A stretch of DNA of 22,299 bases from Gemmatimonadaceae bacterium (GTDB lineage: Bacteria > Gemmatimonadota > Gemmatimonadetes > Gemmatimonadales > Gemmatimonadaceae). The translations under genes and the position numbers were made by a program. The stretch spans positions 1 through 22,299 of the forward strand of contig JBBDYA010000080.1 of the NCBI GenBank assembly GCA_040902005.1, read 5' to 3'. Numbering within the stretch: the stretch's first letter is position 1; each line of letters begins with the position of its first letter. The notes below the pieces were generated by a model. That model worked only from the letters and a program-made list of their open reading frames with translations, was not told where the DNA came from and did no database searches. Of the stretch, positions 1,468-22,297 are shown piece by piece.

Positions 1468-1562
1468 CCGTTGTTGCCGGTCCGAAAAATCGTTGACGCT
1501 CGCGCTGGATACCCGTAGCTTGGCGACCCCGAACCGCATGTCAACGCTCGACCCAGGATCGC

Positions 1563-2192: not shown

Positions 2193-2268
2193 GGTCGGGG
2201 TTCCGGCGCTTACGCTTCATGCGCGATCAAGACTCACTGAAACGCCCACAGCCCCCCCCCATCGCCCC

Positions 2269-2658: not shown

Positions 2659-2672
2659 TCAGGGGTGACGCG

Positions 2673-2703
2673 GCCGGCGTGAGGGCGGATGCCTCACGCC
2701 GGC
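2673..2703. terminator. GC-rich hairpin between convergent gcvH and gcvP (probable bidirectional terminator or stabiliser)
   Basis: Perfect 12-bp stem GCCGGCGTGAGG (2673-2684) / CCTCACGCCGGC (2692-2703) with a 7-nt loop, overlapping the gcvP stop codon. No U-tract. Confidence 0.55.
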
Positions 2704-5579: not shown

Positions 5580-5647
5580 GGAGTGAAAGTTATGCTTCCG
5601 TCAACCGAAGGTGAGCGAGCAAGCCACAGACACTTATGCGGAGCTCA

Positions 5648-6418: not shown

Positions 6419-6496
6419 TCGCTTGACCCTACCCGGCGACTTGGTATCGTAGTCGCACACTCGTCGTCGCCGGTTTCCGCAATCCCACGTGTCGCC

Positions 6497-8167
6497 ATGC
6501 GCTCAGCCCATCCCGCCCTCCTCCTCGCCACGTTCGGCTTGTTCGGGTGCGCCGACCGCTCCAGCGATCCCGGCGCTGGCGAGGTGGGCGGAACCGTCGT
6601 CATCACCGTGCCGGGGGGGTTCCCGCCGTCCCTTCCGCCGATCATCCAGGAAGCCACGTCGCGCGCGGTGGCGGATCAGGTCTTCGAGCGCCTGGCCGAC
6701 ATTGGCGAGGACCTGAACACGCTCGGCGACCGCGGGTTCACGCCGCGTCTCGCGCAGCGCTGGTCGTGGGCGCCGGACTCATTGTCGATCGCGTTCGCGC
6801 TCGATCCGCGCGCTCGCTGGCACGACGGCCGGCCGGTGCGTGCCAGCGACGTACGGTTCACGCTTGGCCTCCTGAAGGATCCGCTGACGTCGTCGCCCTT
6901 CACCACGCTGCTCGTCAACATCGATTCGATCTCGGTGGCTGATTCGCTGACCGCCGTGGTGTGGTTCCGCCGGCGCACGCCGGAGCAGTTCTACGACGCG
7001 GCCTATCAGATCGAGGTCCTTCCGGAGCACGTGCTCGGGCGGGTGCCGCGCAACCAGCTTCGCGCGGCCAACGTCGCGTCGGTATTCGTCGGGTCCGGAC
7101 CCTTCCGGATGTCGCAGTACGAGCCTGGCGTGCGCCTGACGCTCATCGCCGACACGGCGAACTATCGCGGACGACCGAAGCTGGACCGTGTGATCTGGTC
7201 CTTCAGCACCGATGCCGGCGCGGCCATCACGCAGTTCATGAGCGGACAGTCGGACATCTACGACGGCGTTCCGACCGATGTCCTCCCGAGACTGGACAGC
7301 AATCCCAACCTGCGCGTGCGGCCGGTGACGGGGTTTGTCTACGCGTACATGGCGATCAACCAGCGCGACCCGCGGCGGAACGCCGCGCCGCATCCGATCT
7401 TCGCCGACCGCCAGGTTCGCCGCGCGCTGTCCATGGCGCTCGATCGGGAGGCGATGTTGCGGAACGTCTTCGGCCCGACCGGTGTGCTGGGCGCGGGACC
7501 ATACCCCAGCGCGCTGGCAGACAGTGCAGTGCGAATGCTGCCGTTCGACCGCGCCGCCGCCGCCGCGATGCTCGATTCCGCCGGGTGGCGCGCGGGCGCG
7601 GACGGCATCCGCTCGAAGGATGGGCGGCCCCTGGCGTTCAGCATCCTGGTGCCCACTTCCAGCGCACAGCGCATGCGCTACGCGGTGCTCCTCCAGGAGC
7701 AGTTCAGGGCGGTCGGCGCGCGCGTCACCGTCGACGCACGTGATATCCAGGGGTTCATCGACCGGCAGAACACCAGGAATTTCGACATGACGCTCACGGC
7801 CTGGTCGTCGGATCCCGCCATCGGCGGCATCAAGCAGACCTGGACGACGTCCGGCATGGTAGGCGGCAACAACAACATGAGCTACTCCAATCCGCAGGTG
7901 GACGCGCTGATCGATAGCGCGCTCACCGGGTTCGACCCGGTCCGCACGCGGCAGTACGCGCATCGCGCGTACCAGATGATCGTGGACGACGCGCCCGCGG
8001 TGTGGCTGTACGACTTCGTGCAGAACCTCGGCTACCACAGCCGCCTGCGTCCCGTGGACGTGCGCGCGACCGGCTGGGCGTTCGGGCTGGCCCGGTGGTG
8101 GATACCCGAGGCAGAGCGGATCGACCGCGACCGCCTCGGGTTGCGCCCCCCCCCCCCGCAGCCGTAG
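6497..8167 (+). CDS. Peptide ABC transporter substrate-binding lipoprotein (SBP family 5)
   Basis: Lipobox LFG-C, PRLAQRW, ARWHDGRPVRASDVRFT, VGSGPF, VRRALSMALDR, YSNPQVDALID. Confidence 0.93.
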   Translation: MRSAHPALLLATFGLFGCADRSSDPGAGEVGGTVVITVPGGFPPSLPPIIQEATSRAVADQVFERLADIGEDLNTLGDRGFTPRLAQRWSWAPDSLSIAFALDPRARWHDGRPVRASDVRFTLGLLKDPLTSSPFTTLLVNIDSISVADSLTAVVWFRRRTPEQFYDAAYQIEVLPEHVLGRVPRNQLRAANVASVFVGSGPFRMSQYEPGVRLTLIADTANYRGRPKLDRVIWSFSTDAGAAITQFMSGQSDIYDGVPTDVLPRLDSNPNLRVRPVTGFVYAYMAINQRDPRRNAAPHPIFADRQVRRALSMALDREAMLRNVFGPTGVLGAGPYPSALADSAVRMLPFDRAAAAAMLDSAGWRAGADGIRSKDGRPLAFSILVPTSSAQRMRYAVLLQEQFRAVGARVTVDARDIQGFIDRQNTRNFDMTLTAWSSDPAIGGIKQTWTTSGMVGGNNNMSYSNPQVDALIDSALTGFDPVRTRQYAHRAYQMIVDDAPAVWLYDFVQNLGYHSRLRPVDVRATGWAFGLARWWIPEAERIDRDRLGLRPPPPQP

Positions 8168-8170
8168 CGC

Positions 8171-9136
8171 GTGCGGCGCTTCGTCGCCGTCCGCATCGCG
8201 CACGCGGTCGTCGTCGTGTTCATCGTGACGACGATCGCGTTCTTCCTGATCCACTCGGTGCCCGGCGATCCGTTCCAGACGGACAATCCGCGCATCACGC
8301 AGGAGATCCGCGACCGGCTCCGTGCCGAGTTCGGCTACGACCGCCCCGTGATCGAGCAGTACGTTCGCTACGTCGGGAACGTGGCGCGCGGCGAGCTTGG
8401 CTTCTCCCACTCGTTGCAGATCCCGGTGCTGACCGCCCTCGGCGGCGCGCTCAAGCGCACCCTCGCGCTGATGGCCTCGGCGCTCACGCTCAGCTTCGCC
8501 CTGGGCATCTGGCTGGGTGTGTTCGAGGCACGGCACGCGGGACGACGCAGCGCGCGGGTGGCGAACCGGATGTCACTCCTGCTGTACTCCATGCCGGACT
8601 TCTGGGTGGCGCTGATGCTGCTGCTCGCCTTCGCGTACTGGATTCCGCTGTTCCCTGCGGGGGGCATGATCGACGTCGTCATGCACGACTACCTGTCACC
8701 GATGGGCAAGCTGTGGGACTACGCGCGCCACATGGCGCTGCCGCTGCTGGCCCTCACGCTGGTGCTCACCGCCTACATCGCGCGGTACCAGCGCGCCGTG
8801 CTCCTCGACCAGATGCCGTCGGACTATGTGCGGACGGCGCGAGCGAAGGGCGCGGACGAGTCGCGCGTCGTGCGACGGCACGCGCTGCGCAACGCGTTGC
8901 TCCCGATGATCACCCTGGCGGGGCTCGCGTTTCCCATGCTGCTCGGCGGGGCCGTTTTCGTCGAGAAGGTGTTCGCCTGGCCCGGCATGGGGCTGATGAT
9001 CACCACCGCGATCTTCGCGCGCGACTATCCGCTCGTGATCGCGGGCGTGATCGTCGGCGGGGTGATGGTGACACTGGGCAGCCTGCTCGCCGACATCGCC
9101 TACGGCCTGGCAGATCCGAGGATCCGTGTTCGCTGA
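8171..9136 (+). CDS. Peptide ABC transporter permease (OppB/DppB-like)
   Basis: PGDP, DYVRTARAKG EAA-loop, HALRNALLP, EKVFAWPGMG, DPRIR; GTG start. Confidence 0.95.
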   Translation: MRRFVAVRIAHAVVVVFIVTTIAFFLIHSVPGDPFQTDNPRITQEIRDRLRAEFGYDRPVIEQYVRYVGNVARGELGFSHSLQIPVLTALGGALKRTLALMASALTLSFALGIWLGVFEARHAGRRSARVANRMSLLLYSMPDFWVALMLLLAFAYWIPLFPAGGMIDVVMHDYLSPMGKLWDYARHMALPLLALTLVLTAYIARYQRAVLLDQMPSDYVRTARAKGADESRVVRRHALRNALLPMITLAGLAFPMLLGGAVFVEKVFAWPGMGLMITTAIFARDYPLVIAGVIVGGVMVTLGSLLADIAYGLADPRIRVR

Positions 9137-10031
9137 CGCGCTGGCGCGGTTGGCTGCGGGATACCGACGCCTGGCGACCCCAGCGAAGGTCGCGCTCGCC
9201 GTGCTGCTGGCGATGTATCTCGTCGCGCTGCTGGCACCCGTCATCGCGCCATACGCACCGTCGCAGCAGCTGGACATCGTCGCGCTCAAGAGCCAGGCGC
9301 CGACCGCCGCGCATCCCTTTGGCACGGACCGCTTCAGCCGCGATGTCCTGACGCGAGTGCTGTACGGTACGCGGGTCTCGCTCACCATCGCGATGTTCGC
9401 CGTGCTGATTTCCGCCGTCGTCGGCACCCTGTACGGACTGGTCGCGGCGACGATGGGCAGCGTGGTCGATGCGCTCATGATGCGGCTGCTGGACGCCGTG
9501 CTGTCCATTCCGCGCGTGCTGCTGCTGCTCGCGGTGCTGGCGATCTGGAGTCCGGTGCCGGTGTCGACGCTGATTCTCCTGCTCGGACTCACGGGATGGT
9601 TCGAGACGTCGCGGATGGTGCGGGCCGAGGCGCTCACGCTTCGCGAGCGCGACTTCGTGATCGCCGCGCGCTCGCTGGGTGCCGGCCGCGGCCGCGTCAT
9701 GGCCCGGCACCTGCTGCCGAACGTCCTCGTACCGGTCATTGTCGCGGCCACCCTCGGCATCGGGAACGTCATTGTGCTGGAGGCGGGGCTTTCGTTCATC
9801 GGGATCGGCGCCCGGGAGCCGGCGGCAAGCCTGGGCACCATGTTCCACGACGGGACGGAAGCATTCGTCGGCACCTGGTGGCTGGCCCTCTTCCCGGGCA
9901 TCGCGCTGGTGGTGGCGGTCGTGGCAGTCAATGTGCTGGGCGATGGCTTGCGGGCGCTGCTGGACCCACGGCAGCTTCCCGCGGCACCGCTCGGCATGCG
10001 GAGTGCAACGTCACGGGCCACCGTCACCTAA
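9126..10031 (+). CDS. Peptide ABC transporter permease (OppC/DppC-like)
   Basis: [50 protein letters not shown]. Confidence 0.95.
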
Positions 10032-10044
10032 CTTCACCACACGC

Positions 10045-11073
10045 ATGGCCGAACCGCTGCTCTCGATCGAGAACCTCCGTACCTCGTTTCACACGGACGC
10101 CGGCGTCGCGCGCGCGGTGGACGGCGTGTCCTTTTCCATCGGAGCGGGAGAAACGGTGGGCCTCGTGGGGGAGTCCGGCTGCGGCAAGTCCGTCACCGCG
10201 CTGTCCATCCTGCGCCTGATCATGCCGCCGGGCCGCATCGACCCCGACAGCCGGATGCTGTTCGAAGGGCGTGACCTGATGAAGTTGTCCGACGGCGAGA
10301 TGCGCAAGATTCGCGGCAATCGGATCGCGATGATCTTCCAGGAGCCGATGACCGCGCTGAATCCGGTCTTCACCGTGGGCGACCAGATCGCGGAGGTGGC
10401 GCGCATTCACGAGAAAGCGACGCGGCGCACCGCCTGGAAACGCGCGGTGGAGATGCTCGACCTGGTCGGCATTCCCGCGCCGGAGGAGCGCGCGGGCGAG
10501 TATCCGCATCAACTGTCGGGCGGCATGCGGCAGCGCATCGTGATCGCGATGGCGCTGGTCATGCGCCCCGCGCTGGTCGTGGCGGACGAGCCCACCACCG
10601 CGCTCGACGTCACCATTCAGGCGCAGATCCTGGAGCTGCTCGGGGATCTCCAGCAGCGCTTCGGCACGTCGATTCTTCTCATCACGCACGACATGGGCGT
10701 CGTGGCCGAGGCCGCCTCGCGGGTGATCGTGATGTACGGCGGAGAGATCGTGGAGGAATCCCCGGTGGATCGTATCTTCGCCAGCCCGCATCACCCGTAC
10801 ACCGAAGGATTGCTCGGCGCGATGCCCCGCGTGGGCCAGGAGCGCGAACGCCTGCAGACGATTCCGGGCACGGTGCCGGCGCCAACGGCGTGGCCTTCGG
10901 GGTGCCGGTTTCACGATCGCTGCGGCTACTCGTGGGAGCGCACCGCGCACGAGCACCCCCCGCTGTACGACGTGGGCCCCGGTCACCGCTCGCGGTGCCA
11001 CCTAGCCCAGGAGCCGGAGCGCCGCCAGCATCCCCACGAGCCGGTCGTGGTACAGCGGGGAGTGCCCGCATGA
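10045..11073 (+). CDS. Peptide ABC transporter ATP-binding protein (OppD/DppD-like)
   Basis: Walker A GESGCGKS, signature LSGGMRQR, Walker [21 protein letters not shown]-terminal GCRFHDRC. Start at ATG 10045 (MAEPLL). Confidence 0.95.
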
Positions 11074-12155
11074 GCGAGCCGCTGCTGTCGGTCCGGAATC
11101 TATCCAAGCACTTCACGAGAACGTCGGGATTGTTCGGTGCCACAAAGGACGCGATCCGCGCCGTGGACGGCGTGTCCTTCAACGTGTTTCCCGGGGAAAC
11201 CCTGGCACTCGTCGGCGAGTCCGGCTGCGGAAAGACCACGACCGGCCGGGCGATCCTCAGACTCATCGAGCCCACGGGCGGCGAGGTGCGTTTTGACGGC
11301 CAGGACGTGCTCGGACTCGGCTCCGCGGACCTGCGCCGGCTGCGGCGCCAGATGCAGATCATCTTCCAGGACCCGTTTTCGTCGCTGAATCCGCGCATGT
11401 CGATCGGCGCGATCGTCCGCGAGGGGCTCACGATCCACCGGATCGCCGAGGGCGCGGAAGCGGACAAGCGCACGCGCCGCCTGCTGGACGAAGTGGGACT
11501 GCGTCCGGAATACGCCGAGCGGTACCCGCACGAGTTCTCGGGTGGACAGCGGCAGCGCGTGGGCATCGCGCGGGCGCTGTCCGTGGAGCCGAGGTTCATC
11601 GTCTGTGACGAACCCGTCTCGGCGCTGGACGTCTCGGTGCAGGCACAAGTGATCAACCTGCTCCAGGATCTCCAGCGCGATCGCGGCCTCGCGTATCTCT
11701 TCATCGCGCACGACCTCTCGGTCGTGGAGCACATCGCGGATCGCGTCGCGGTCATGTACCTCGGTCACATCGTCGAGCTGGCGAAGTCCGAGGACCTGTA
11801 TCGCGAGCCGCTCATGCCGTACACGCAGGCGCTGCTGTCGGCGGTGCCCGTGCCCGATCCCGCCGCGAGGCGCGATCGCATCGTGCTCCAGGGAGACGTG
11901 CCCTCCCCCGCCAATCCGCCATCGGGGTGCGTCTTCCATCCGCGGTGCCACCACCCGCGCAAGGATGCGGCCTGCGCGTCGATCGTTCCCCCGCTCGAGG
12001 AAAAGGCGCCCGGACATTTCGCGGCGTGCATCAAGCAGCCGCCAACCGGCGTCGTGTGGGAGCAGCAGAAGACCCACGGTGGCACATTGGAGCCGGAGCG
12101 GTATGTTCCGCGCTCCGCTTTGCGCCTTCCCCAGCCGTCCCAGCCCACGTCGTAG
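11070..12155 (+). CDS. Peptide ABC transporter ATP-binding protein (OppF/DppF-like)
   Basis: [51 protein letters not shown] overlap with the upstream gene at 11070-11073. Confidence 0.95.
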
Positions 12156-12187
12156 GCAGGATCTCCCCCCCCCAGAACGGAGCGACC

Positions 12188-13780
12188 ATGGCCAACGAGA
12201 AGCCGCCCAGAGCACAGGCCCAGGCCACGGGTGTGGCGACGGACAGTCCGCCGCCAGGACTCGAAGAGTGGACGCAGAACACAAGCTTCTTCGGGCATCC
12301 GCGCGGGCTCTCCACGCTCTTCTTCACGGAGATGTGGGAGCGCTTCTCGTATTACGGCATCCGGCCGCTGCTCGTGCTGTTCATGTCGGCGGCACTGTTC
12401 GACGGCGGCTTCGGCTTCGACCGCACGCAGGCCTCGGCGATCGTCGGCATCTACGGGGCGTGCGTGTACCTCGCCTCGCTTCCCGGCGGCTGGGTCGCTG
12501 ACCGATTGCTCGGCCTTCGGCGCGCCATCCTGTACGGCGCCGTCCTGATTTCGCTGGGCCACATCGCGATCGGGTTCTCGTCGTTCATGGGCTCCAGGCT
12601 GCCATTCTTCCTGGGACTCGTCCTCATCGTGATGGGCACGGGTCTGCTGAAGCCGAATATCTCGGCGATCGTCGGCGACCTGTATCCCGAGGGCGGCGCC
12701 CGCCGCGACGCCGGGTTCTCGATCTACTACATGGGCATCAACATCGGTGCCTTCTTCGGACAGCTGGTCACCGGGCTGCTCGGCGAGCAGTACGGCTGGC
12801 ATCTGGGCTTCGGCGCCGCCGGCGTGGGCATGCTCCTGGGACTCGTCGTCTTCGCCATGCGCGCGCCCAAGACCCTCGGCCCGATTGGCCTCCAGCCGAC
12901 GCGGCATCCCGACGCGGCCGTGCAGGCGACGCAGGAACGCCGGGTGAAGCTCACGCTCGGTATCGGACTCGGATTGCTCGGACTGTTCATCGTGCTGGCA
13001 GCCACCGGCACCATCACGCTCGATGCGGCCGCGATCGCGGAACAGATGACGTACGTCCTGGTCGGGACCGCGGTGCTGTACTTCCTGTACGTGTTCGTCG
13101 CCGGTGGCCTGGATGGCGACGAGAAGCGTCGTGTCGCGGTCATCGCGGTGCTGTTCGTCGCCGCGGCGATCTTCTGGTCCGCGTTCGAACAGGCGCCGAC
13201 GTCGCTCAACCTGTTCGCGCGCGACTTCACGGATCGCCAGTTCGGCGCCTTCGAGATGCCGGCGACGTGGTTCCAATCCGCCAACGCATTCTTCGTGGTG
13301 CTTTTCGCCCCCGTCGCGGCGGCGCTCTGGGTGCGGCTCTCCAAACGTCCCGGGGGAGACCTCTCGAGTCCAGCCAAGTTTTCCGCCGGGCTCCTGCTCG
13401 CCGGCATCGGATTCTTCGTGATGATCTTCGCCGCAAAGAGCGTCGTCGCCAGCGGCGGCATCCTGAAGGTGTCCGCCTGGTGGCTGATCGCGAGCTACTT
13501 CTTCCAGACGATCGGCGAGCTGTCGCTCAGCCCGGTCGGTCTCTCGTCGATGACCAAGCTGTCGCCGCGCCGATACGTCGGGCAGATGATGGGCATCTGG
13601 TTCCTCGCGTCCGCGGTCGGCAACCTGATCGGCGGGCGCGTCGGCGGCCACGTGGATCCGGAAAACCTCGAGCAGATGCCGCAACTGTTTACCCTCACGA
13701 CGGCGTCGCTCGTCATCGCCGCGATCGTGCTTGCCCTGCTCATCAAGCCGATCCGGAGCATGATGCGGAACGTGAACTAG
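12188..13780 (+). CDS. Proton-dependent oligopeptide transporter (POT/PTR family, MFS)
   Basis: ExxERFxYY motif (TEMWERFSYYG), GTGLLKPNIS, FSIYYMGINIG, multiple TM segments. GGAG at 12179-12182 precedes the ATG at 12188. Confidence 0.95.
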   Translation: MANEKPPRAQAQATGVATDSPPPGLEEWTQNTSFFGHPRGLSTLFFTEMWERFSYYGIRPLLVLFMSAALFDGGFGFDRTQASAIVGIYGACVYLASLPGGWVADRLLGLRRAILYGAVLISLGHIAIGFSSFMGSRLPFFLGLVLIVMGTGLLKPNISAIVGDLYPEGGARRDAGFSIYYMGINIGAFFGQLVTGLLGEQYGWHLGFGAAGVGMLLGLVVFAMRAPKTLGPIGLQPTRHPDAAVQATQERRVKLTLGIGLGLLGLFIVLAATGTITLDAAAIAEQMTYVLVGTAVLYFLYVFVAGGLDGDEKRRVAVIAVLFVAAAIFWSAFEQAPTSLNLFARDFTDRQFGAFEMPATWFQSANAFFVVLFAPVAAALWVRLSKRPGGDLSSPAKFSAGLLLAGIGFFVMIFAAKSVVASGGILKVSAWWLIASYFFQTIGELSLSPVGLSSMTKLSPRRYVGQMMGIWFLASAVGNLIGGRVGGHVDPENLEQMPQLFTLTTASLVIAAIVLALLIKPIRSMMRNVN

Positions 13781-13815
13781 TCCTCGGCCGGCCCGCGCCG
13801 AGGGCACGGTCTGAA

Positions 13816-15534
13816 CTACGGCCAGTTGTAGATGCTCGCGGGCACCGCGCGTGCCCGCGCGGCGTCCACGTCCACGGGCTCGCGCCAGAAAAACGTGGTG
13901 AGGTCGCGGTGGGAAAGACGAAGCTCCCACGGGCTCATTCCCGGAAGCTTGTTGAGCGGGACCGCGAACTCCAGCCGCCAGGTGCGCGTGGACCGCATGG
14001 GAATGGCGAGTAGCACGCTGGCCCCAGCCGACACGCGGATCTGCGTTACGTCGCCATACGGCACGTCGCCCGGCCACAGCCGGCCGGCGTCGCTGAAAAC
14101 CGAAAAGCCGAAATCTCCAAAGTCGAACGGCGTGCCCAGGAACACCCGCTCCTCGATCCGCGCGACGGCACGGCGCCCTCCAACCGACGATTCCTCCTCG
14201 CGGAATCCGCGCACGCCACCCTCCGGCACGCCGAGCGAGAGCGCGTGCGGCATCAACACACGCGACGTCCCGCTCCATTCCACGGTGACGGACCGCGTGC
14301 GGCGGTCGGTGACGCGGCTATGTCGCGCGAGCCGGCCCGTGCCGACAAGACCGTCCCATTCCCCGCTCCCCCGCTGGCGGCGTCCTTCGCCCTGGAACTG
14401 TAGCCGAACAATGCGCCCCGGACTGCCGTACCCCAGGTAGAGGTCCGACGCGACGAACAGGTCGTTGCTGACCGCGCCGAGCGCGGGAACGCCACGGCCA
14501 ACGAGCGCGCCGAATTGCAGCCCGAGCGGCACGTCCTGAGTGCCCCGCAACGCGTCGATGGCGCGCGTTCGCATGTAACGCAGGCCACGCAACCCCAGCA
14601 GCGCGTTGACCCGAGCCGCGCGCGTTTCCATGAATCGGCCGCCGAACGCGCTCGCGGTATCGGAGAACAGTCCGACGTCCGTGACGCGCGCGGCAGCCGT
14701 GTCCGGAAAGGCGCGCTCATTCGTGAACGAGAGGCCGAAGAGCGTGAGCTTTCCCGGAGGCCCCACACGCACCATGCCGCCGAGCTCCGCGTACTCCCGG
14801 CCGTACCCGAGGGCGAGTCGGCCGCTGTCCCGTGCGGCGAAGAGCGCATGGCCCCGACTCTCGCCAACGACGCCGCGCCACGCGAATCGCTGGACGTCCG
14901 TCCTGAACGGCAGCATCAGCTCGGCGCGGTCGTCGCGACCCAGCGGGTCGCGCAGCAGCGAGACCGCCAGCACGTACGGCTTGCCCGCGAACTGATGGTC
15001 CGCGATGCGAATCTGCATGACGTCGTCGAAGTACTGCCGGTAGCGCCAGGCGATGGACGTCGCGATGCCGCGTCCCGCGAGATTGGAGCTCCCGATCCGT
15101 GCGGCGCGGACGTTCGGACCCACCGTGCCGATGGCCCCGCTGAGGATCAGCGACGCCTCGTCGATCGTCCGCACGTCCAGCACCACGCCCCCGCGATTGT
15201 TCGAAAGGACCTCGATGGACGCGTCGGCCAGATAGGGCTGCGCGCGGAGGATGCGTTCCGATTCCGCGCGCCGCAGCTCGGTGCACCGGTCTCCGACGCG
15301 AAGCAGAAGGTACCCGCGCACGACGTCCTCGCGGGTGACCACGTGCGTTTCGCGAACCACGTTGCCCAGGACGGGCACGCGGCTGAGCCCCGCGACCGTC
15401 GGCGCCTGCGCATCCACGATGACCGAATCGATGCGCTGCCCGCGACACGGCACGAGTCCCCTGGCCCCCCCCGGCTGCGCCGCCGCTGATGACGTCCCTG
15501 CGCAGATCAGCAGAATCGCAAGCCGGTAGCGCAC
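13816..15534 (-). CDS. Omp85/BamA-TamA superfamily outer-membrane protein (POTRA-like N-terminus plus beta-barrel)
   Basis: Signal peptide MRYRLAILLICAGTSSAAA, POTRA-like segment TREDVVRGYLLLRVGD...ESERILRAQPYL, loop-6-like motif GGVRGF, amphipathic beta-strand pattern. Confidence 0.7.
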   Translation of the reverse strand: MRYRLAILLICAGTSSAAAQPGGARGLVPCRGQRIDSVIVDAQAPTVAGLSRVPVLGNVVRETHVVTREDVVRGYLLLRVGDRCTELRRAESERILRAQPYLADASIEVLSNNRGGVVLDVRTIDEASLILSGAIGTVGPNVRAARIGSSNLAGRGIATSIAWRYRQYFDDVMQIRIADHQFAGKPYVLAVSLLRDPLGRDDRAELMLPFRTDVQRFAWRGVVGESRGHALFAARDSGRLALGYGREYAELGGMVRVGPPGKLTLFGLSFTNERAFPDTAAARVTDVGLFSDTASAFGGRFMETRAARVNALLGLRGLRYMRTRAIDALRGTQDVPLGLQFGALVGRGVPALGAVSNDLFVASDLYLGYGSPGRIVRLQFQGEGRRQRGSGEWDGLVGTGRLARHSRVTDRRTRSVTVEWSGTSRVLMPHALSLGVPEGGVRGFREEESSVGGRRAVARIEERVFLGTPFDFGDFGFSVFSDAGRLWPGDVPYGDVTQIRVSAGASVLLAIPMRSTRTWRLEFAVPLNKLPGMSPWELRLSHRDLTTFFWREPVDVDAARARAVPASIYNWP

Positions 15535-15538
15535 CGGC

Positions 15539-16090
15539 CTACTTGCCCATCTTCCGCTTCAGTTCCTCGAGGCGGCGATCCGCATCGGCGTCACGATCTG
15601 TTCGCGCGCGCGCGCGAAGCAGCGCCTCCAGCTCCTGCTCGGCGCGCGCGTCCGCCGTATCCGCGAGCGGATCATCCAGCGGTGCGCCCGGCGGCGGCGC
15701 GGGAATGCCCGTCATCGCCTTCCGAAGTTCTGCCTTCATTTCCTCGAGCTCGCGGTCGGCGAGTTCCACCTCGCGCGTCTGGATGGCGATCTTGTCCTCG
15801 AGAATGCGCGCCCGTTCCTCGTGCTGCCGCTCAAAGCGCTCGGCCACGGCGACCGTTTCGGCGTCCCGGATGCCAAGCGCGAGCTCCTTCCGCCGCCGGA
15901 CGGTGGCCAACTCGCGCTGCTCGCCTTCGAGCTTCCGCTGTGATACGGCCAGGGCATCCCGCAGGTCGTCCACGCCCATCCTGACCTGCACGAGCGTGCT
16001 GCGCATGCGCGCCATGACAGTACGCCGTTCCTCGGGCTTCGTGGCCCGCTGCAGCAGTTCGTCCAGGGACCGTCGCAGATGCTCGAACAC
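15539..16090 (-). CDS. Coiled-coil protein, PspA/IM30-like
   Basis: 183 aa, helical and E/R/L-rich, ending DADADRRLEELKRKMGK like PspA C-termini; GTG start; ends 4 nt before the Omp85 gene start. Confidence 0.6.
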   Translation of the reverse strand: MFEHLRRSLDELLQRATKPEERRTVMARMRSTLVQVRMGVDDLRDALAVSQRKLEGEQRELATVRRRKELALGIRDAETVAVAERFERQHEERARILEDKIAIQTREVELADRELEEMKAELRKAMTGIPAPPPGAPLDDPLADTADARAEQELEALLRARARTDRDADADRRLEELKRKMGK

Positions 16091-16219
16091 AGAGGCTGTA
16101 CGCGAAATCGAGGGGGAAGGTGACAGTGCCGCCTGAGGGGGCGCTTGTCTGTTCGGGGGGCGCGCTTACCATACCGTCTGGCACGATGGACCCGCAACTC
16201 CTCTCACGCCCTCGCCTGC

Positions 16220-16939
16220 ATGCGCGCCCCTCTCGTCGCGGTCACCGCCACCACCAGGCTTAGTGATGGCGTTTCACGCGTGTACCTCAACGAGGCCTAT
16301 GTCCAGGCGCTGCGGGCCGTGGGACTCACCCCCCTGATCCTTCCGCCGCTCGATGCCACGGAGCTTCCCGACATCGTGGCCGGCGTGCAGGGCGTCGTGC
16401 TCACGGGCGGCGAGGACGTGGATCCAGCCGAGTATGAAGCGTCCCGCGGCGCGCACACGGAGCCGCCACACCGCCGGCGGGACAAGATGGAACTGGCCCT
16501 CGTGACGCTCGCCCGGGAGCGGTCGATTCCGACCCTGGCGATCTGCCGCGGCCTGCAGGTGGTGAACGTGGCCCTGGGTGGATCGCTCGTGCAGGACATC
16601 CCCACGGAATTCGAGACCACGGTCACGCACCGGGCAGCCGAACGAGACCAGCGCGTCCACGAAGTGAGGGTGGAGGGCGATTCCGCGTTGGCGCGGGCGG
16701 TCGGCGCGCGAACCATCAGCGTGAACTCCTCGCACCACCAGTCCGTGGGCCGCCCGGGTGAGGGCGTGCGCGTCACTGCGCGCGCGTCCGACGGCGTCAT
16801 CGAGGGCGCCGAGTGGAAGGATGACGGGTGGTGGATGCTCGGCGTCCAGTGGCACCCGGAAGATCTAGTGCGCGACGTGGAGGACTGGGATCGCGCGCTG
16901 TTCCGCGCCTTCGCGACTCGCGTGCGCGGGCCGGACTAG
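16220..16939 (+). CDS. Gamma-glutamyl-gamma-aminobutyrate hydrolase family protein (peptidase C26, class I glutamine amidotransferase)
   Basis: VLTGGEDVDP, nucleophile elbow LAICRGLQ, VNSSHHQ, GVQWHPE (Cys-His-Glu triad). Confidence 0.92.
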   Translation: MRAPLVAVTATTRLSDGVSRVYLNEAYVQALRAVGLTPLILPPLDATELPDIVAGVQGVVLTGGEDVDPAEYEASRGAHTEPPHRRRDKMELALVTLARERSIPTLAICRGLQVVNVALGGSLVQDIPTEFETTVTHRAAERDQRVHEVRVEGDSALARAVGARTISVNSSHHQSVGRPGEGVRVTARASDGVIEGAEWKDDGWWMLGVQWHPEDLVRDVEDWDRALFRAFATRVRGPD

Positions 16940-17667: not shown

Positions 17668-17770
17668 CTGCGCCTCCCCCCTGAGACCCAATACCCGCGG
17701 TCGGTTCGAAGGTTGTGTGAAGGCAGGACCCGTGCTCCTCAGACTGCCTGGACCGCCTGAGGTAAAACGT

Positions 17771-17797
17771 TTGGCACTCAGCAGTTGACAGTGCTGA
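17771..17797. promoter_or_regulatory. CIRCE-like operator (putative HrcA site)
   Basis: TTGGCACTC-N9-CAGTGCTGA against the consensus TTAGCACTC-N9-GAGTGCTAA: 8/9 and 7/9 matches with exact 9-nt spacing; about 100 nt upstream of the hypothetical gene starting at 17667. Confidence 0.6.
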
Positions 17798-17798
17798 C
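17791..17798 (+). repeat. Target-site duplication, left copy (GTGCTGAC)
   Basis: Identical 8-mer at 21337-21344; each copy directly abuts a TIR. Confidence 0.93.
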
Positions 17799-17820
17799 GG
17801 CGTCTATGTATTTGGCGCAC
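17799..17820 (+). repeat. Terminal inverted repeat (left)
   Basis: GGCGTCTATGTATTTGGCGCAC matches the reverse complement of 21315-21336 (GGCGTGTATGGATTTGACGCAC) at 19/22 positions. Confidence 0.92.
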
Positions 17821-17850
17821 AGGGCACGGCCACCACCACAGAAGGGGCCT

Positions 17851-18240
17851 ATGACGGCCCTTAACGCGGAGATTGTAGCGCGAGCCGATCCCGGCATAGC
17901 CCCCGCCGTGAGGGTTCTGTTGGACGCTGGCATAGAAACCTTCGAGTCATGCCAGGGGGGGCGCGGCCATTGTTATCCCGAACCGACTGTCCGGTTCTTT
18001 GGCCAGCGGTCGGAGGGCTTCCGGGCCTTAGCCGCCGTGCGCCAACTGGCCTTCCGGGTCCATTCGCTTCGACGCATCTGGCCGATCATCGACGGGGAGC
18101 CCACAGGCCCGTATTGGGAGCTGGTTTTTGAGGCCGGGCTATACGAGGACGCGGAGCAGTCACGCGACGTGCTGGTGCAGGCGGCAAACGCGGGCACGGC
18201 TCAAGAGTGGTTCCGCGCCCGCGAGAGGCCACATGCCTAA
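17851..18240 (+). CDS. Passenger hypothetical protein (129 aa) with a D-x-x-I...T-x-x-SCQG-x-x-x-H motif
   Basis: ATG at 17851 follows the SD-like GAAGGGG (17841-17847). Globular-looking sequence ADPGIAPAVRVLLDAGIETFESCQGGRGHCYPEPTVRF. The ORF-track start at 17785 lies outside the element. Confidence 0.75.
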   Translation: MTALNAEIVARADPGIAPAVRVLLDAGIETFESCQGGRGHCYPEPTVRFFGQRSEGFRALAAVRQLAFRVHSLRRIWPIIDGEPTGPYWELVFEAGLYEDAEQSRDVLVQAANAGTAQEWFRARERPHA

Positions 18241-18241
18241 C

Positions 18242-18391
18242 TCACTTGCAGTTTTGGCAGCGCGGGCGACCGCCCGTTCCCGACACCCTGTTGTACGTCT
18301 CGATGTTGTTCCCTTCGGTGCAGGTGTCGTCGTCGTGGTACACCTTCTTGTCGCTTTCCCGCTTCGAGTGGAACGGTGCAACTCTGGCCAT
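18242..18391 (-). CDS. 49-aa putative zinc-binding microprotein (H-x4-C...CxxC)
   Basis: Translated by hand: MARVAPFHSKRESDKKVYHDDDTCTEGNNIETYNRVSGTGGRPRCQNCK*. SD-like GGGAAGGG lies 4 nt before the ATG, and the stop is 1 nt from the convergent gene's stop. Confidence 0.75.
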   Translation of the reverse strand: MARVAPFHSKRESDKKVYHDDDTCTEGNNIETYNRVSGTGGRPRCQNCK

Positions 18392-18510
18392 GGTACCCTT
18401 CCCGTTAGGAGGAAGTGGAACGATATAACCAAAGACTCATTTAGGAAATACGGATTAACACGGCCGGTAGGAAATGCGAAAGGATCGCCTTTACTAAACC
18501 GGTCCGCTGC

Positions 18511-18651
18511 TCATTTCTTCTTTTTGCTTGGCGGTTTCCCGCGTTTTAGCGCCTGCTTTAAGGCGTCCTTCCAGTCTCCCTCAATCTTGAGGGTCTCGGG
18601 CGGGCGTCCGCGCTTCTTGGAGGGTGTCTTTTTCTTGGGCATTTCGTCCAT
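18511..18651 (-). CDS. Small basic peptide (43-46 aa) with an AT-hook-like KRGRPP motif
   Basis: MDEMPKKKTPSKKRGRPPETLKIEGDWKDALKQALKRGKPPSKKKK, starting at 18651 or 18642. The ORF-track start at 18708 lies inside the tRNA. Confidence 0.6.
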   Translation of the reverse strand: MDEMPKKKTPSKKRGRPPETLKIEGDWKDALKQALKRGKPPSKKKK

Positions 18652-18671
18652 TTTGGTAGTAGATTGTCTAG

Positions 18672-18757
18672 TGCGGTCGGCGGGGTTCGAACCCGCAATC
18701 TCGGCCAAGAGAAATAGATTCCAGGTCTATCGCGTTTACCGTTTTCGCCACGACCGC
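18672..18757 (-). tRNA. Atypical class II tRNA: Leu-type body, anticodon TGG (Pro), C33, no encoded CCA
   Basis: Cloverleaf read by hand: acceptor GCGGTCG/CGACCGC plus A73; D arm GCG-AAAACGGTAAA-CGC; anticodon arm ATAGA-CCTGGAA-TCTAT; 17-nt variable arm with a TCTC/GAGA stem; T arm GCGGG-TTCGAAC-CCCGC. Followed by CTA rather than CCA. Confidence 0.88.
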
Positions 18758-18758
18758 G

Positions 18759-18795
18759 CCCCGTACTGCCGTCAGCAGTACGGGGTTTCTTGTTT
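18759..18795 (+). terminator. Perfect 11-bp hairpin with a U-rich tail on the + strand
   Basis: CCCCGTACTGC-cgtca-GCAGTACGGGG (18759-18785), followed by TTTCTTGTTT. Confidence 0.65.
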
Positions 18796-18796
18796 C

Positions 18797-19264
18797 CTAT
18801 TCCGTGGCCAAGCTGGCTTCCTGAGGCTTCCATTCGCGCTGCTCCAGTTCGGTGGTCAGCGCCAAGAGGTTCATGGGAGGAAGCCAAAGCGGTCCGAACC
18901 GACCTTTGCCGCTCAGCGACGCAAGGGTTTCGCGGACGAATGGGTACAGCGCTGCTGGCCCTGCTTTCACCACGTAATCGCGAAGCGACATGTTCGGTTC
19001 GTCGGTCTGTTCAACGACCGCGACAAACTCAATACCGAACCGATAGAGGCTGTTCGCCGCCTCTTCTTTTGGCGTGAACACAGAAACGGATACGATGCCG
19101 CTTTTCTCGTCCGGGGAGATGCCGACCCTGACCTTCACTTTTGTAGGTATGTCCTCGACGGGCGTGGTTGGCGGAAGGGCCAGCGCATCATTGCGCGTCT
19201 CGAAGTGGCAACGAGACAAGAAGATCTGATTGATCTTGATGCCGGGGTTTTTTGTGGCGTCCAT
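18797..19264 (-). CDS. SecB-like chaperone (TAC chaperone)
   Basis: IKINQIFLSRCHFE resembles SecB strand 1, and GPAALYPFVRETLASLSGKGRFGPLWLPPMN resembles the SecB C-terminal motif P-x-x-L-F-P-Y-x-R...G-x-F-P-x-L-x-L-x-P-V-N. Its ATG directly abuts the antitoxin TAA. Confidence 0.88.
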   Translation of the reverse strand: MDATKNPGIKINQIFLSRCHFETRNDALALPPTTPVEDIPTKVKVRVGISPDEKSGIVSVSVFTPKEEAANSLYRFGIEFVAVVEQTDEPNMSLRDYVVKAGPAALYPFVRETLASLSGKGRFGPLWLPPMNLLALTTELEQREWKPQEASLATE

Positions 19265-19744
19265 TTAGTTCGCGAAGTACGACGGAAGGGTGGTGGTCAA
19301 CGTCTGACGCACCCGCTGGTGCGTACTGCCGCCTACGTGCAGCGGTGGGACGTTCGCCGTGTGTACCTGAAAGGCCCGCATCGAAATCGCGGGATACTCC
19401 GCTGTCGCTTCAGGGGTGGCACCCAACGGTTCTGTCCACAGGTCGCGCACCTGTCGGCCAGCCGCCCACAGCAGAGCGCCAAGCGTGCGAAGAGTCATGT
19501 TCGTCGAGCCGTTCAGAGCCTGACTCACATACGACTTCGTGGTGCCGAGCAGGCCTGCCACTTCAGAGCGCGACAGCCCAGCCCTCTTGATCGCGTCCTG
19601 AACAGCGGCGGTGATCGCGGAAATCGCTTCGTCCTCGGCATATGGACGCAGCGAAGTACCTGCGGGGAGCTGCCGCGCAATCCAGTGGTCGCTGGGCAGG
19701 TCATCTACGGTGCGAATCACGTTCTTAGTCATCTGCGGGTCCAT
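19265..19744 (-). CDS. XRE/Cro HTH antitoxin (HigA-like) with a C-terminal extension
   Basis: AGLSRSEVAGLLGTTKSYVSQALNGSTNMTLRTLGALLWAAG is a typical HTH_XRE segment, followed by about 50 extra residues. The start (19744 or 19732) overlaps the toxin's end. Confidence 0.85.
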   Translation of the reverse strand: MDPQMTKNVIRTVDDLPSDHWIARQLPAGTSLRPYAEDEAISAITAAVQDAIKRAGLSRSEVAGLLGTTKSYVSQALNGSTNMTLRTLGALLWAAGRQVRDLWTEPLGATPEATAEYPAISMRAFQVHTANVPPLHVGGSTHQRVRQTLTTTLPSYFAN

Positions 19745-20108
19745 TCAAGTAGTCCTGAAGCCGTTTCAGAGCCGTTCGGTAGTCCGGCTCTTGTCCTGTG
19801 GTCTTTTTCTTCGCCGCGTGAAGAACGACGTAGGTGTTCCGGTCTTTGTAGCCCCATGATCGCGTGACCTTGAGGTTGAACTGATGCAGATCGCGGAACT
19901 CCCCCTCCAACTGATGCCCGTTGTTTTCCAGCCGTATCCGCCCAAACCGGGCCATCTCGCGGCAGCGTTGAAGGAACTGCGCGAAGTCGTACGGATGCCG
20001 CTCCAAGAAACGCCGCGCGGGGAACTCGTGGCGGAAGCGCATCCAGCGGACCCGCATGGCGGGTCCGTCGAGGATGAAAGCGGTTTCAGGAAGTTCATCA
20101 GGCTCCAC
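19725..20108 (-). CDS. RelE/ParE-superfamily toxin, HigB/Gp49-like
   Basis: About 127 aa; HQLEGEFRDLHQF...R...YVVLHAAKKKTTGQEPDYRTALKRLQDY parallels the Gp49/HigB pattern L-x-G...LWE...R...VLLHxFxKKT...A-x-x-R. Toxin-first order upstream of an HTH gene. The start is uncertain (GTG 20108 preferred; 20138 possible). Confidence 0.75.
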   Translation of the reverse strand: MEPDELPETAFILDGPAMRVRWMRFRHEFPARRFLERHPYDFAQFLQRCREMARFGRIRLENNGHQLEGEFRDLHQFNLKVTRSWGYKDRNTYVVLHAAKKKTTGQEPDYRTALKRLQDYLNGPADD

Positions 20109-20128
20109 GGTGTAGCTATAACTACACC
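20109..20128. promoter_or_regulatory. Palindromic operator, putative antitoxin autoregulation site
   Basis: GGTGTAG-C-TATA-A-CTACACC is a 20-bp palindrome with one mismatched pair, directly abutting the toxin GTG at 20108. Confidence 0.65.
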
Positions 20129-20217
20129 ACCGTCCCACATTTCGCTAGGTTGGCCGTTATGTCCGCCAGTAAACAACGATTTGGAGCAGTTTAAGCCACA
20201 CTGGAAATTAGTGGCAC

Positions 20218-20245
20218 TTGACGCACAGGGTGCGTGTAGTATCAT
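20218..20245 (+). promoter_or_regulatory. Putative sigma70 promoter of the transposase (leaderless transcript)
   Basis: TTGACG (20218-20223), a 16-nt spacer, then TATCAT (20240-20245). The A of the ATG (20252) is 7 nt after the -10 box, and no SD is present. Confidence 0.55.
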
Positions 20246-20251
20246 TATACC

Positions 20252-21307
20252 ATGCCTAAAGTCGCCAATAAGAGGTCAGCCCTCGAAGCCCGTATCCCAA
20301 TCGCCTGCTCGGATGAAGGCGCAGCCGTGGCGTTCCTCGAAGAACAGCGGTGGGGCGATACGCCCAACTGCCCGCGTTGTGGGGATACCGACGTGACGCA
20401 GATGAAGGCCAAGGACGGCACCCGCAATGCGCGGTTCCTGTGGCGCTGCAAGGGCTGCAAGCAGCAGTACACGGTCCGCGTTGGGACGATCATGGAGGAC
20501 AGCCCCATCCCCTTCCGTCACTGGTGCCTGGCGTTCTTCCGGGCCGCGTCCAGCAAGAAGGGCATCAGCGCCTTGCAGATTCAGCGCGAGACCGGCCTGT
20601 CCTACAAGAGCGCCCTGTTCCTCATGCACCGTATCCGCTGGGCAATGGCGCCAGCCAACGAGAACGAGCCCAAGCTGGGACGTGACGGCGGTATCGTGGA
20701 GTACGACGAGACATACGTTGGCGGTCGCCCGCGTGGTCATGCGCGGTACCTGAAGGCAGACGGTAATTACCGCTCAGGCCCCGCAACCGATTTCGCGGAC
20801 CGCAAGACGCCCGTTGTCGGCGGCATTGAGCGCGATGGCCGCGTAAAGGCTCGCGTTGTCTCAAGTCTCACCGCTACCGAACTGGCCAAGAACGTCGTCG
20901 CAATGGTGGACCCGTCAGCGCACTTGCAGACCGATCAGGCGCAAGCGTACAAGGCGGTCGGGCAGGACTTCGCCAGTCATGAGCGTATCCGCCACAACGC
21001 TGGCCAGTACGTGCGTTATACCGAGGAAGGCCTACAGGTCACGACGAATCGCATCGAGGGCTTCTGGTCGCTGCTCAAGAAGCAGATTCACGGCACCCAT
21101 ACCTCAGTGAGCCGGAAGCACCTTCAGCGTTACGTCAGCGAAGTGGAGTTCAAGTACAACAACCGTGGCCTGAGCGATGGCGAGCGCACGGTGAAGCTGA
21201 TTCAGTCGTGCGACCATCGCCGCCTGACCTACAAGGAATTGACCGCCGAACGTGACCGCCGTGGTCGCACCCTCAACCGTGACGCGTTGGGGCGCATCTG
21301 CAAATGA
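20252..21307 (+). CDS. IS1595-family DDE transposase (ISXO2-like domain)
   Basis: Zinc ribbon CPRC...CKGC, HTH ISALQIQRETGLSYKSALFLMHRIR, catalytic motifs VEYDETYVGG, LQTDQAQAY and TTNRIEGFWSLLK, plus RYVSEVEFKYN. No frameshift. Confidence 0.97.
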   Translation: MPKVANKRSALEARIPIACSDEGAAVAFLEEQRWGDTPNCPRCGDTDVTQMKAKDGTRNARFLWRCKGCKQQYTVRVGTIMEDSPIPFRHWCLAFFRAASSKKGISALQIQRETGLSYKSALFLMHRIRWAMAPANENEPKLGRDGGIVEYDETYVGGRPRGHARYLKADGNYRSGPATDFADRKTPVVGGIERDGRVKARVVSSLTATELAKNVVAMVDPSAHLQTDQAQAYKAVGQDFASHERIRHNAGQYVRYTEEGLQVTTNRIEGFWSLLKKQIHGTHTSVSRKHLQRYVSEVEFKYNNRGLSDGERTVKLIQSCDHRRLTYKELTAERDRRGRTLNRDALGRICK

Positions 21308-21314
21308 GGAAGCC

Positions 21315-21336
21315 GTGCGTCAAATCCATACACGCC
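21315..21336 (-). repeat. Terminal inverted repeat (right)
   Basis: GTGCGTCAAATCCATACACGCC lies 7 nt after the transposase stop and matches the left TIR at 19/22 positions. Confidence 0.92.
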
Positions 21337-21344
21337 GTGCTGAC
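21337..21344 (+). repeat. Target-site duplication, right copy (GTGCTGAC)
   Basis: Identical to 17791-17798. Confidence 0.93.
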
Positions 21345-21346
21345 GC

Positions 21347-22297
21347 TCAGCGAGGACGTGATTCCCGATTCGCCAGCGCGGCTCCGAGCTCGAGCAGGAG
21401 GGCGCTGATCCGGGACATCTTCTGGTAGTCGACCTTGGCTGGTTCGTCCGACACCTTGTGGTAGTCCTCGTGCAGTCCGGTGGTGAAGAACAGCACGGGG
21501 ATTCCCTTCTGCGCGTAGTTGACGTGGTCGCTGCGGAAGTAGATGCGTTCCGGATGATCCGGCGTATCCCACTCGCGATCGAGCTCCATCGGGCGAAGCT
21601 GCCGCGCATTCACGGTGTCCAGGATGGCGCCCAGCACCCGGCTCTGACCATTGGGCGCCGCCATCGGCCCAACCACGTAGACGCGATTCTCGGCGGCCAC
21701 GCCATCGGTCTGCGAATTGAATGCTGCCGTGGCGCCACCACGACGACCGATCATGTCGAGATTCACGTGCGCAACGATCGAGTCGATCGGCACGGTGGGG
21801 TTGCTGGTGAAATAGGCGGAGCCGAGCAGCCCCTTTTCCTCAGCGGTGTGCCACACGAACAGTACGGAACGCCTGGGCGGGTTGTCCCTGAGGGATCGGG
21901 CCAGCGCCAGCATCGCAACGGTGCCCGAACCGTTGTCGTCCGCGCCATTGGCGATCGAGTCCGGCGACATGCGCGGCTGGATCCCGATGTGGTCGTAATG
22001 GGCACCGAAGGCGACGAACGTCTTGTTCAGCAGGGGATCGGTTCCGCGCACGACGGCGACGATGTTGTGCGAGGTCACCTGATCCTGTCGCAGATCGATC
22101 CGGCCCAGAAAGGTGCGCCCGTCCAGCGGGCGCGGCGAATCGTCCGCCTGCCAGTTGGCCGGCAGCAGGGGCGAGTTGGGGCGCGCCAGGCCGAGAATGA
22201 TCATCGGCAGCGGGCGCTCCGAGTCCGACGTCGTGCGGTCACCGGGCGATGCCGTCACCGTGCGCATCAGCTCGGGCGCGGCCTGCGTGTAGAACTC
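21347..22297 (-). CDS. M28 family metallopeptidase (5'-partial)
   Basis: GAHYDHIG, NGADDNGSG, HTAEEKGLLGS, NLDMIGR, RSDH, DYHKVSD. The frame stays open to the window edge. Confidence 0.93.
   Translation of the reverse strand, partial: EFYTQAAPELMRTVTASPGDRTTSDSERPLPMIILGLARPNSPLLPANWQADDSPRPLDGRTFLGRIDLRQDQVTSHNIVAVVRGTDPLLNKTFVAFGAHYDHIGIQPRMSPDSIANGADDNGSGTVAMLALARSLRDNPPRRSVLFVWHTAEEKGLLGSAYFTSNPTVPIDSIVAHVNLDMIGRRGGATAAFNSQTDGVAAENRVYVVGPMAAPNGQSRVLGAILDTVNARQLRPMELDREWDTPDHPERIYFRSDHVNYAQKGIPVLFFTTGLHEDYHKVSDEPAKVDYQKMSRISALLLELGAALANRESRPR

Follow-up and report, generated by a model that had tools for sequence, protein, structure and literature searches.

A tRNA gene that joins the body of a leucine tRNA to the proline anticodon UGG was found inside an IS1595 transposon in a 22,299-nt stretch of DNA from a Gemmatimonadaceae bacterium (the window), and related elements in many bacteria carry tRNAs of the same kind. 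The tRNA is real and its family widespread, and judged from sequence comparison it probably serves these transposons as a module for recoding their own genes. We think it reasonably likely that the tRNA is a missense tRNA charged by LeuRS, that its selected target is the element's own transposase, and that it tunes transposition.

The IS1595 element and its tRNA gene

The element is an intact IS1595 transposon of 3,538 bp (17799-21336), present as a single copy in the genome. It has the components of an IS1595 transporter IS, namely an IS1595 transposase, terminal inverted repeats, a flanking 8-bp target duplication and passenger genes, and the tRNA gene lies between the repeats, which bears out the earlier note in calling it transposon-borne. 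The features are:

17791..17798, plus strand: 8-bp target-site duplication, left copy
17799..17820, plus strand: left terminal inverted repeat
17851..18240, plus strand: conserved 129-aa cargo protein of unknown function, with 723 relatives
18511..18642, minus strand: 43-aa Lys/Pro-rich peptide of no known family, starting 30 nt behind the tRNA
18672..18757, minus strand: class II tRNA gene with Leu-type body and Pro UGG anticodon at 18721-18723 (ARAGORN, Rfam)
18758..18786, no strand assigned: GC-rich hairpin immediately 5' of the tRNA, resembling a terminator in the antisense (plus) direction (z -7.1)
18797..19264, minus strand: SecB-like chaperone (PF02556), next to the tRNA on its upstream side and part of a toxin-antitoxin-chaperone (TAC) module
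19265..19744, minus strand: HTH antitoxin with a long C-terminal tail (PF01381/PF13560)
19725..20108, minus strand: putative toxin of the TAC module, Gp49/RelE-HigB-like (scores of 0.92-0.93 with PF05973 clusters in a feature search, a lead only)
20218..20245, plus strand: predicted sigma-70-like promoter for the transposase (one site, against 1.0 expected by chance)
20252..21307, plus strand: intact IS1595-family transposase, 351 aa (PF12762, PF12760)
21315..21336, minus strand: right terminal inverted repeat
21337..21344, plus strand: 8-bp target-site duplication, right copy

The minus strand reads, in order, putative toxin, HTH antitoxin, SecB-like chaperone, hairpin, tRNA and 43-aa peptide. 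The SecB-like and HTH parts of the TAC module were identified by Pfam and the toxin part by the feature search only, the putative toxin having no Pfam match; the chaperone also gives a weak match to PADLOC PD-T4-9_C. The 43-aa peptide, which marks this IS1595 clade, matched nothing in NCBIfam, PADLOC or PHROG. The 129-aa protein has an invariant T-x-E-S-C-x-G motif and, in the model, a compact alpha/beta fold; no family and no telling fold match were found for it (best Z 8.0).

The transposase scores 164.6 bits with NF033547 (cut-off 75), its named relatives are from Gemmatimonadaceae, and its structure model has a pLDDT of 88.6. No solved IS1595 structure was found by sequence, and a fold search returned retroviral integrase cores only. 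Nine nucleotides of the right inverted repeat recur in the -35 region of the predicted promoter, which, together with a short palindrome at 20218-20240, may be an autoregulation site. Ten nucleotides of the hairpin (18763-18772) match the junction of the left target duplication and inverted repeat (17792-17801), possibly by chance. Outside the element, a peptidase C26 was identified by Pfam at 16145-16939, and the flanking region from 116 to 16939 looks ordinary, with genes that we take to be those for thymidine kinase, GTP cyclohydrolase, dephospho-CoA kinase, glycine cleavage H and P, and a peptide ABC transporter.

ARAGORN called a single tRNA in the whole 22,299-nt window, on the minus strand with anticodon TGG, and Rfam RF00005 matched 18672-18757 at 58.5 bits (E 1.6e-10) with all pairs standard; the free-energy fold alone does not give the cloverleaf, with a z of only -1.8. 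The cloverleaf is 7/5, with a 3-bp D stem, a variable region of 16 nt and G1-C72; the anticodon loop is C-C-U-G-G-A-A, with C33 and A37, and CTA follows A73, the CCA end not being encoded. Everything that had been listed of this structure in the earlier note is present. A73, A14, A15:U48, G18G19, A20a and the long variable arm are those of a tRNA-Leu, and the leucine anticodon (A35) is replaced by UGG. Of tRNA-Pro features the gene has G35, G36 and A73; the C1-G72, G15:C48, G37 and short variable loop of canonical bacterial tRNA-Pro are absent, as had been stated for all but G15:C48, and the host's own tRNA-Pro copies have the full set. In global comparison with the 37 other ARAGORN calls of the host, the three best matches were Leu tRNAs (scores 69, 63 and 54), and the host Pro-GGG scored 52.

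We do not take CTA in place of CCA, or C33, as signs of a decoy: 0/31 host tRNAs with a canonical T loop encode CCA, hence its lack is ordinary for this host, and C33 occurs in 20 relatives. Since the host possesses canonical tRNA-Pro genes of its own for UGG and GGG, as well as four for Leu, the element tRNA is supernumerary, and this tRNA set does not support host-wide reassignment of CCA. Assembly error and decay were ruled out, because the sequence over 17734-21800 is identical (0 differences) to that in public contigs assembled from run X1, possibly the source sample, and cloverleafs are found family-wide, in agreement with the earlier argument from intact stems.

A family of leucine-type tRNAs with proline anticodons

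A relative in another genus (L012) has the same tRNA body with the loop C-U-C-G-G-A-A. A pattern scan of GTDB for a Leu-type D arm with an NGG anticodon gave at least 120 loci, and 85 of the 100 that were parsed formed cloverleafs pairing in stems that the pattern did not constrain. The anticodons of the at least 84 unique cloverleafs were TGG (67), AGG (9), CGG (7) and GGG (1), and the records came from Acidobacteriota, Planctomycetota, Alpha-, Gamma- and Deltaproteobacteria, Myxococcota, Gemmatimonadota, Chloroflexota, Verrucomicrobiota, Actinomycetota, Krumholzibacteriota and Eisenbacteria. A control scan of metagenomic sequence for any anticodon without A35 yielded 121 loci and 99 unique cloverleafs, among which TGG was the commonest anticodon (24), followed by GTC (9), CGC (8), GTT (8) and ochre TTA (8). 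All scans together gave at least 120 distinct Leu-type bodies with a Pro anticodon, 99 of them UGG, from over ten bacterial groups.

Among the 120 members listed, A73 is found in 117 and A15:U48 in 119, position 33 is U in 100 and C in 20, position 37 is A in 84 and G in 36, and pair 1-72 is G1-C72 in 97, G1-U72 in seven and C1-G72 in 15. Every stem position except the third D pair shows several pair types, a count that the pairing filter biases upward. The homologue search that had been suggested thus found relatives at IS1595 loci with compensatory pairs and all of the anticodons UGG, AGG, CGG and GGG. The alternative origin then proposed, an out-of-register Ser(GGA) loop, fails on A73, which excludes a Ser discriminator in 117 of the 120, and on position 37, where G is in the minority.

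The family is tied to IS1595. A transposase of this type lies within 3 kb in 35/52 Pro-anticodon loci with full flanks versus 2/37 loci with other non-Leu, non-stop anticodons (2/13 for other A73 bodies, 0/24 for non-A73 bodies), and in 24 of the 59 loci with a transposase, ends and a target duplication enclose both it and the tRNA. When the search was started from transposase matches, the family tRNA was found in 8/15 loci of the peptide-bearing clade against 0/30 more distant loci. At 28 of the 90 UGG loci with at least 2.5 kb of sequence, no IS1595 transposase was found. A stable hairpin lies 5' of 57 of the 120 listed members, compared with 4/37 host tRNA calls and 6/77 control stretches. 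No synthetase was found among the recurrent neighbours.

Several observations were made beside these. Family tRNAs also lie next to IS1-like and other transposase-like genes (L022, L143, L188, L207, L274, L525; L162, L338; L023, L197). A73 Leu-type bodies with Glu, Asp or Ala anticodons occur with no IS1595 gene nearby (L139, L158, L166, L167, L190, L200), L166 and L167 being two copies on one contig. Anticodon loops of 6 or 8 nt, possible frameshift suppressors, are found in or beside elements (L015:5874-5966, L432:5015-5089, L064, L148).

Fixed codons in the transposase

Three codon positions of the transposase, here called the N, M and C sites, bear on the function of the tRNA:

20297..20299, plus strand: N site, CCA codon, Pro16, in the middle of helix 10-20 of the model; CCA in 38/39 UGG elements with the motif
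20651..20653, plus strand: M site, CCA codon, Pro134, just after helix 118-132 of the model
21239..21241, plus strand: C site, TTG (Leu) in this element, three codons beyond the Tyr in the terminal RLxY motif

Pro16 and Pro134 are the sole CCA codons of the element's transposase. At the C site most other UGG elements have CCA and most ochre elements a stop. A set of 161 distinct transposases was scanned, every column and every four-fold codon box being examined in the 58 from UGG elements. A codon ending in A or T is fixed at three columns, all of them CCA (38/39, 39/42 and 21/30), and the next best column reaches 30 %. Other four-fold boxes in these transposases end in A in only 9-18 %, family-wide prolines are CCA in 6/133, and long GC-rich ORFs of the host use CCA for 7.6 % of Pro codons. 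Around the N site the third base is A in at most 8/39; neighbouring codons are therefore free, which argues against a DNA motif there. As the elements are related and not independent, p values overstate these differences.

The codons also follow the anticodon. Pro codons at the C site are CCA in 32 and CCT in two UGG elements, CCA in none and CCT in four AGG/GGG elements, and CCA in two and others in eight tRNA-less elements; within the AGG/GGG group, CCT stands at the C site of 4/5 elements and at the M site of 4/6. L199 (GGG), although nested in a CCA clade, has CCT at both the N and C sites, and L601 and L604 (UGG) have CCA among tRNA-less sisters with CCT or CTT. Codons also predicted tRNAs: CCA-type codons in L420 led to one that ARAGORN had missed, and CCT-type codons in L560, for which an AGG or GGG tRNA was expected, to one with AGG. 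There are mismatches, in that the sites of L012 and L090 (CGG) are CCT/CCA, L658 (UGG) has CCT and L057 (UGG) has a stop at the C site; for L612, L613 and L571 (CCA) the family tRNA was not found, nor was it in the whole genomes of L612 and L613. Genomes flagged as unpublished (L029, L080, L097 and L630) are included in these counts and in the ProRS table below, L097 being one of the six AGG/GGG cases.

The C site calls for caution. In the 34 alphaproteobacterial elements that have no tRNA, the residue at this site is Thr, Ala, Pro or Ser, so that leucine is not required and proline occurs without the tRNA. Their third base is T in 25/31 whatever the amino acid (L645-L689), an unexplained bias at the DNA level that weakens the CCU match. 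In distant IS1595 clades the C site is a leucine in a Leu-Ile/Thr motif, which had suggested licensing by leucine; a requirement for leucine is weakened by the tRNA-less control and is kept only as the licensing branch of the explanation given below. Among the 120 closest proteins listed, the N and M sites are proline and never leucine; at the C site 102 have Gln and six Leu, and this element has Leu there already.

The 43-aa peptide family shows a similar pattern, with CCA at one early proline in 21/37 versus 2/68 at two late prolines; the peptide of this element is without the early CCA site. Neither a substitution of conserved Leu, Ser or Ala columns nor such a codon signature was found in six IS1-like transposases or in the Ser- and Ala-body cases L418, L422 and L440.

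These patterns bear on three other readings. An outward function, in which the tRNA would be an inducible mistranslation toxin (for defence or addiction) hitting AT-richer invaders or the cell through CCA, with the transposase codons secondary, is improbable. In this element the tRNA does come after a TAC operon, and in others after HTH/peptidase or other regulatory genes, the anticodons read codons rare in GC-rich hosts, and allo-tRNAs are toxic and lie near toxin-antitoxin genes (PMC5389517, portion covered). Such a toxin predicts avoidance of CCA in the element's own genes, yet all 58 UGG transposases have at least one, compared with 63/87 tRNA-less ones, and the upstream cargo is not conserved. 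The TAC module as a dedicated partner of the tRNA was rejected, since the cargo is interchangeable and differs between elements.

That the gene is a non-decoding mimic (a decoy for a nuclease, synthetase or ribosome), as the earlier note had considered, or a copy made useless by its C33, is highly improbable. Some allo-tRNAs are inactive in E. coli (PMC5389517, portion covered), and this copy has C33; however, the large majority of listed members have U33, the 20 with C33 have intact stems, the element keeps both ends, its target duplication and two CCA sites, and the tracking of codons by anticodons implies decoding.

The lowest probability is given to a kinetic throttle, in which an A37/C33 tRNA without m1G37 would cause a stall, drop-off or frameshift at CCA whatever its amino acid. 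The frequency of A37 (84/120 listed members), the recurrence of C33, the retention of proline at the sites, and the location of the N site at codon 16 and of the peptide sites near the start would suit it. Against this, 36/120 have G37 and 100/120 U33, a stall or shift at the C site, a few codons before the stop, would change little, and the stop codon found there in ochre elements would be left unexplained.

Ochre and companion tRNAs

In ochre elements, where the tRNA chassis is that of the Pro family, the transposase reading frame ends in TAA or TAG precisely at the C site in 4/5, compared with 0/31 tRNA-less relatives, and the codon after the stop in these four encodes Ile, Ile, Ala or Thr. 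The Leu-bodied ochre (UUA) subfamily includes L150, L196, L216 and L316, with a tRNA and neighbouring transposase, and also L146, L268, L326 and L334; a conserved gene for a 150-aa coiled-coil/HTH-like protein follows these tRNAs.

Companion tRNAs in the elements combine a Ser body or an Ala (G3:U70) body with an anticodon foreign to it. Class II bodies of Ser type, with G73 or U73 and a Leu, Ala or ochre anticodon, occur in IS1595 elements at L418:3693-3780, five bases upstream of a Pro-anticodon tRNA, and at L422:5128-5325, L571:5220-5309 and L221. G3:U70 (alanine) tRNAs with Asp, Ser or irregular anticodon loops are found at L440:2871-2945, inside IS1595 ends, and as upstream companions in L050, L062 and L116. 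In a scan of viral sequences, whose pattern returned mostly Asn tRNAs, no IS1595 match was found at 72 Asn, 15 TTA and 4 CTA loci.

The amino acid carried

Leucine is the most likely amino acid on the element tRNA, judging from its identity elements. In the portion of PMC9976931 covered (Giege & Eriani), E. coli LeuRS requires A73, A15:U48, G18G19 and A20a and does not need the anticodon, E. coli ProRS requires G72, and A. pernix ProRS uses G1-C72, A73 and the anticodon, the archaeal determinants being G1-C72, A73, G35 and G36. The host LeuRS is of the bacterial type, and the host ProRS belongs to family I, the eukaryote/archaeal type, which makes charging with proline possible in this host; the element tRNA has the bases that a family-I ProRS would use (G35/G36, A73, G1-C72), but on a class II body and with A37.

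A cognate tRNA-Pro on a leucine-like scaffold, charged by ProRS and decoding CCA in the element's genes (as bldA does TTA) or resisting a tRNA-Pro nuclease, is therefore to be weighed, and we regard it as unlikely. Apart from the match of G1-C72, A73, G35 and G36 to archaeal ProRS determinants (PMC9976931, portion covered), it would fit the presence of C1-G72 in 15/120 listed family members versus 0/18 Leu tRNAs, the proline at the fixed CCA sites in all close relatives listed, and the occurrence of phage tRNAs whose Leu-like long-arm scaffold carries cognate discriminators (Asn G73 30/32, Gln G73 5/6, His C73 3/5), which means that such a scaffold can be cognate. These phage tRNAs sit at viral loci, for example L282, L289, L319 and L336. 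ProRS was typed in 50 of the 82 host genomes, a selection that took in all 12 C1-G72 copies, and was family II in 32, family I in 15 and neither in three. C1-G72 occurs in 9/32 family-II and 3/15 family-I hosts (p 0.73), so pair 1-72 is not fitted to ProRS type, and 23/32 family-II hosts carry a copy without G72. A15:U48 replaces G15:C48, A37 predominates, the host already has a tRNA-Pro UGG for the CCA codons that it uses, nothing in the tRNA would prevent charging by LeuRS, and for the ochre tRNAs built on this chassis there is no cognate amino acid. Bodies with A73 are also found with Asp, Glu, Ala, Gly and stop anticodons.

The earlier proposal of a natural Pro-to-Leu mistranslating tRNA hence stands in part: A73 and A15:U48 are near-universal among listed members, G72 is mostly absent and anticodons track codons, but the family-I ProRS of this host may charge proline.

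Proposed mechanism

In the explanation that we favour, in which the tRNA carries leucine, host RNase P and the CCA-adding enzyme would mature the tRNA, and LeuRS, blind to the anticodon, would by its identity rules charge it with leucine. The tRNA would decode CCA, a codon rare in the GC-rich host, and leucine would replace proline in a part of translation events. Its target would be the element's own transposase, in which CCA is found at two or three fixed sites, with the small companion peptide as a looser second target. Two forms of transposase would result, and their ratio, set by the element's own tRNA, would tune transposition. Either the leucine forms are inactive or inhibitory and the tRNA restrains transposition, or they are active and it licenses it; restraint appears somewhat likelier, as several dispersed targets would suit it better. 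With its 5' hairpin, C33 and A37 the tRNA is probably only weakly active, which would limit the damage to host proteins.

A broader proposal, on which we are evenly divided, is that a widespread group of IS1595 elements has a private genetic code, in which a Leu-charged tRNA and its codon (CCA, CCU or stop) at fixed transposase sites license or restrain transposition by self-directed recoding, and that these elements also form a mobile pool, in environmental bacteria, of missense and nonsense tRNAs with Leu, Ser and Ala bodies.

Relationship to known systems and implications

IS1595 transporters have a Zn-ribbon/HTH/DDE transposase, inverted repeats of about 22 bp, an 8-bp target duplication and variable passenger genes, and such elements with passenger genes were reportedly described by Siguier et al. 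in 2009. The element shares the transposase type, repeats, duplication and passengers; a recurrent tRNA passenger matched to transposase codons was not found described. Control by a dedicated tRNA or recoding event is known from bldA and TTA in Streptomyces, the programmed frameshifts of IS1 and IS3, and the suppressor tRNAs of stop-recoded phages, and these have in common with the element a rare codon in chosen genes that creates dependence on one tRNA or recoding event. However, bldA belongs to the host and is cognate, IS frameshifts work without any tRNA from the element and the phages reassign stops genome-wide, whereas here a sense codon at fixed sites is paired with a mismatched tRNA borne by the element.

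Among hybrid-identity tRNAs, allo-tRNAs (Mukai et al. 2017, PMC5389517; reviewed in PMC7609411) are, in the portions covered, 8/4 or 9/3 tRNAs of Ser or Ala identity (G73/U73, G3:U70), some with missense activity. They resemble the element tRNA in the long variable arm, an anticodon unrelated to identity and proximity to toxin-antitoxin and transposon genes, the allo-tRNAs being from soil bacteria, but differ in their Sec-like D arm and discriminator from its 7/5 fold, 3-bp D stem and A73, and the portion of PMC5389517 covered makes no link to transposase codons. Nematode nev-tRNAs (Hamashima et al., PMC3333845, PMC4300185, portions covered) likewise have a Leu-derived class II body with a foreign anticodon and are leucylated and decode the foreign codon as leucine in vitro, with no detectable mistranslation in vivo (PMC4300185). 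They are eukaryotic and chromosomal, with Gly/Ile anticodons and no known target gene, unlike the bacterial element tRNA with its Pro anticodon, which by analogy may work as they do but is not one of them. The tRNA-ProX/ProRSx system of Streptomyces (PMC10404621, PMC11415595, portions covered) is also a natural bacterial hybrid-identity family that departs from the norm at position 33, as well as having A34, and causes mistranslation and toxicity in E. coli. It runs in the opposite direction, a Pro body inserting Pro at Ala/Asn/Thr codons, with its own synthetase gene proSx adjacent, and the text covered gives no transposon context.

A full-text search of freely available papers, among them part of the main text of PMC5389517, whose supplements list irregular 7/5 tRNAs, found neither a family with Leu bodies and Pro anticodons nor a tRNA of a transposon that matches the element's transposase. 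The tRNA alone is a further kind of hybrid-identity tRNA, and its coupling to the element's own transposase is the part not found described.

For the natural mistranslating tRNAs in the papers covered (allo-tRNAs, tRNA-ProX and nev-tRNAs) purpose and target are open, whereas here the target is legible in the sequence down to the codon, which makes deliberate mistranslation testable with three codons. If the proposal is right, it would add a new layer to the self-control of transposons and would explain puzzling 'tRNA-Pro' calls in many genomes. The proteins made would then differ from some of the transposase sequences and stops now annotated, and the elements would be a source of natural orthogonal missense and ochre tRNAs.
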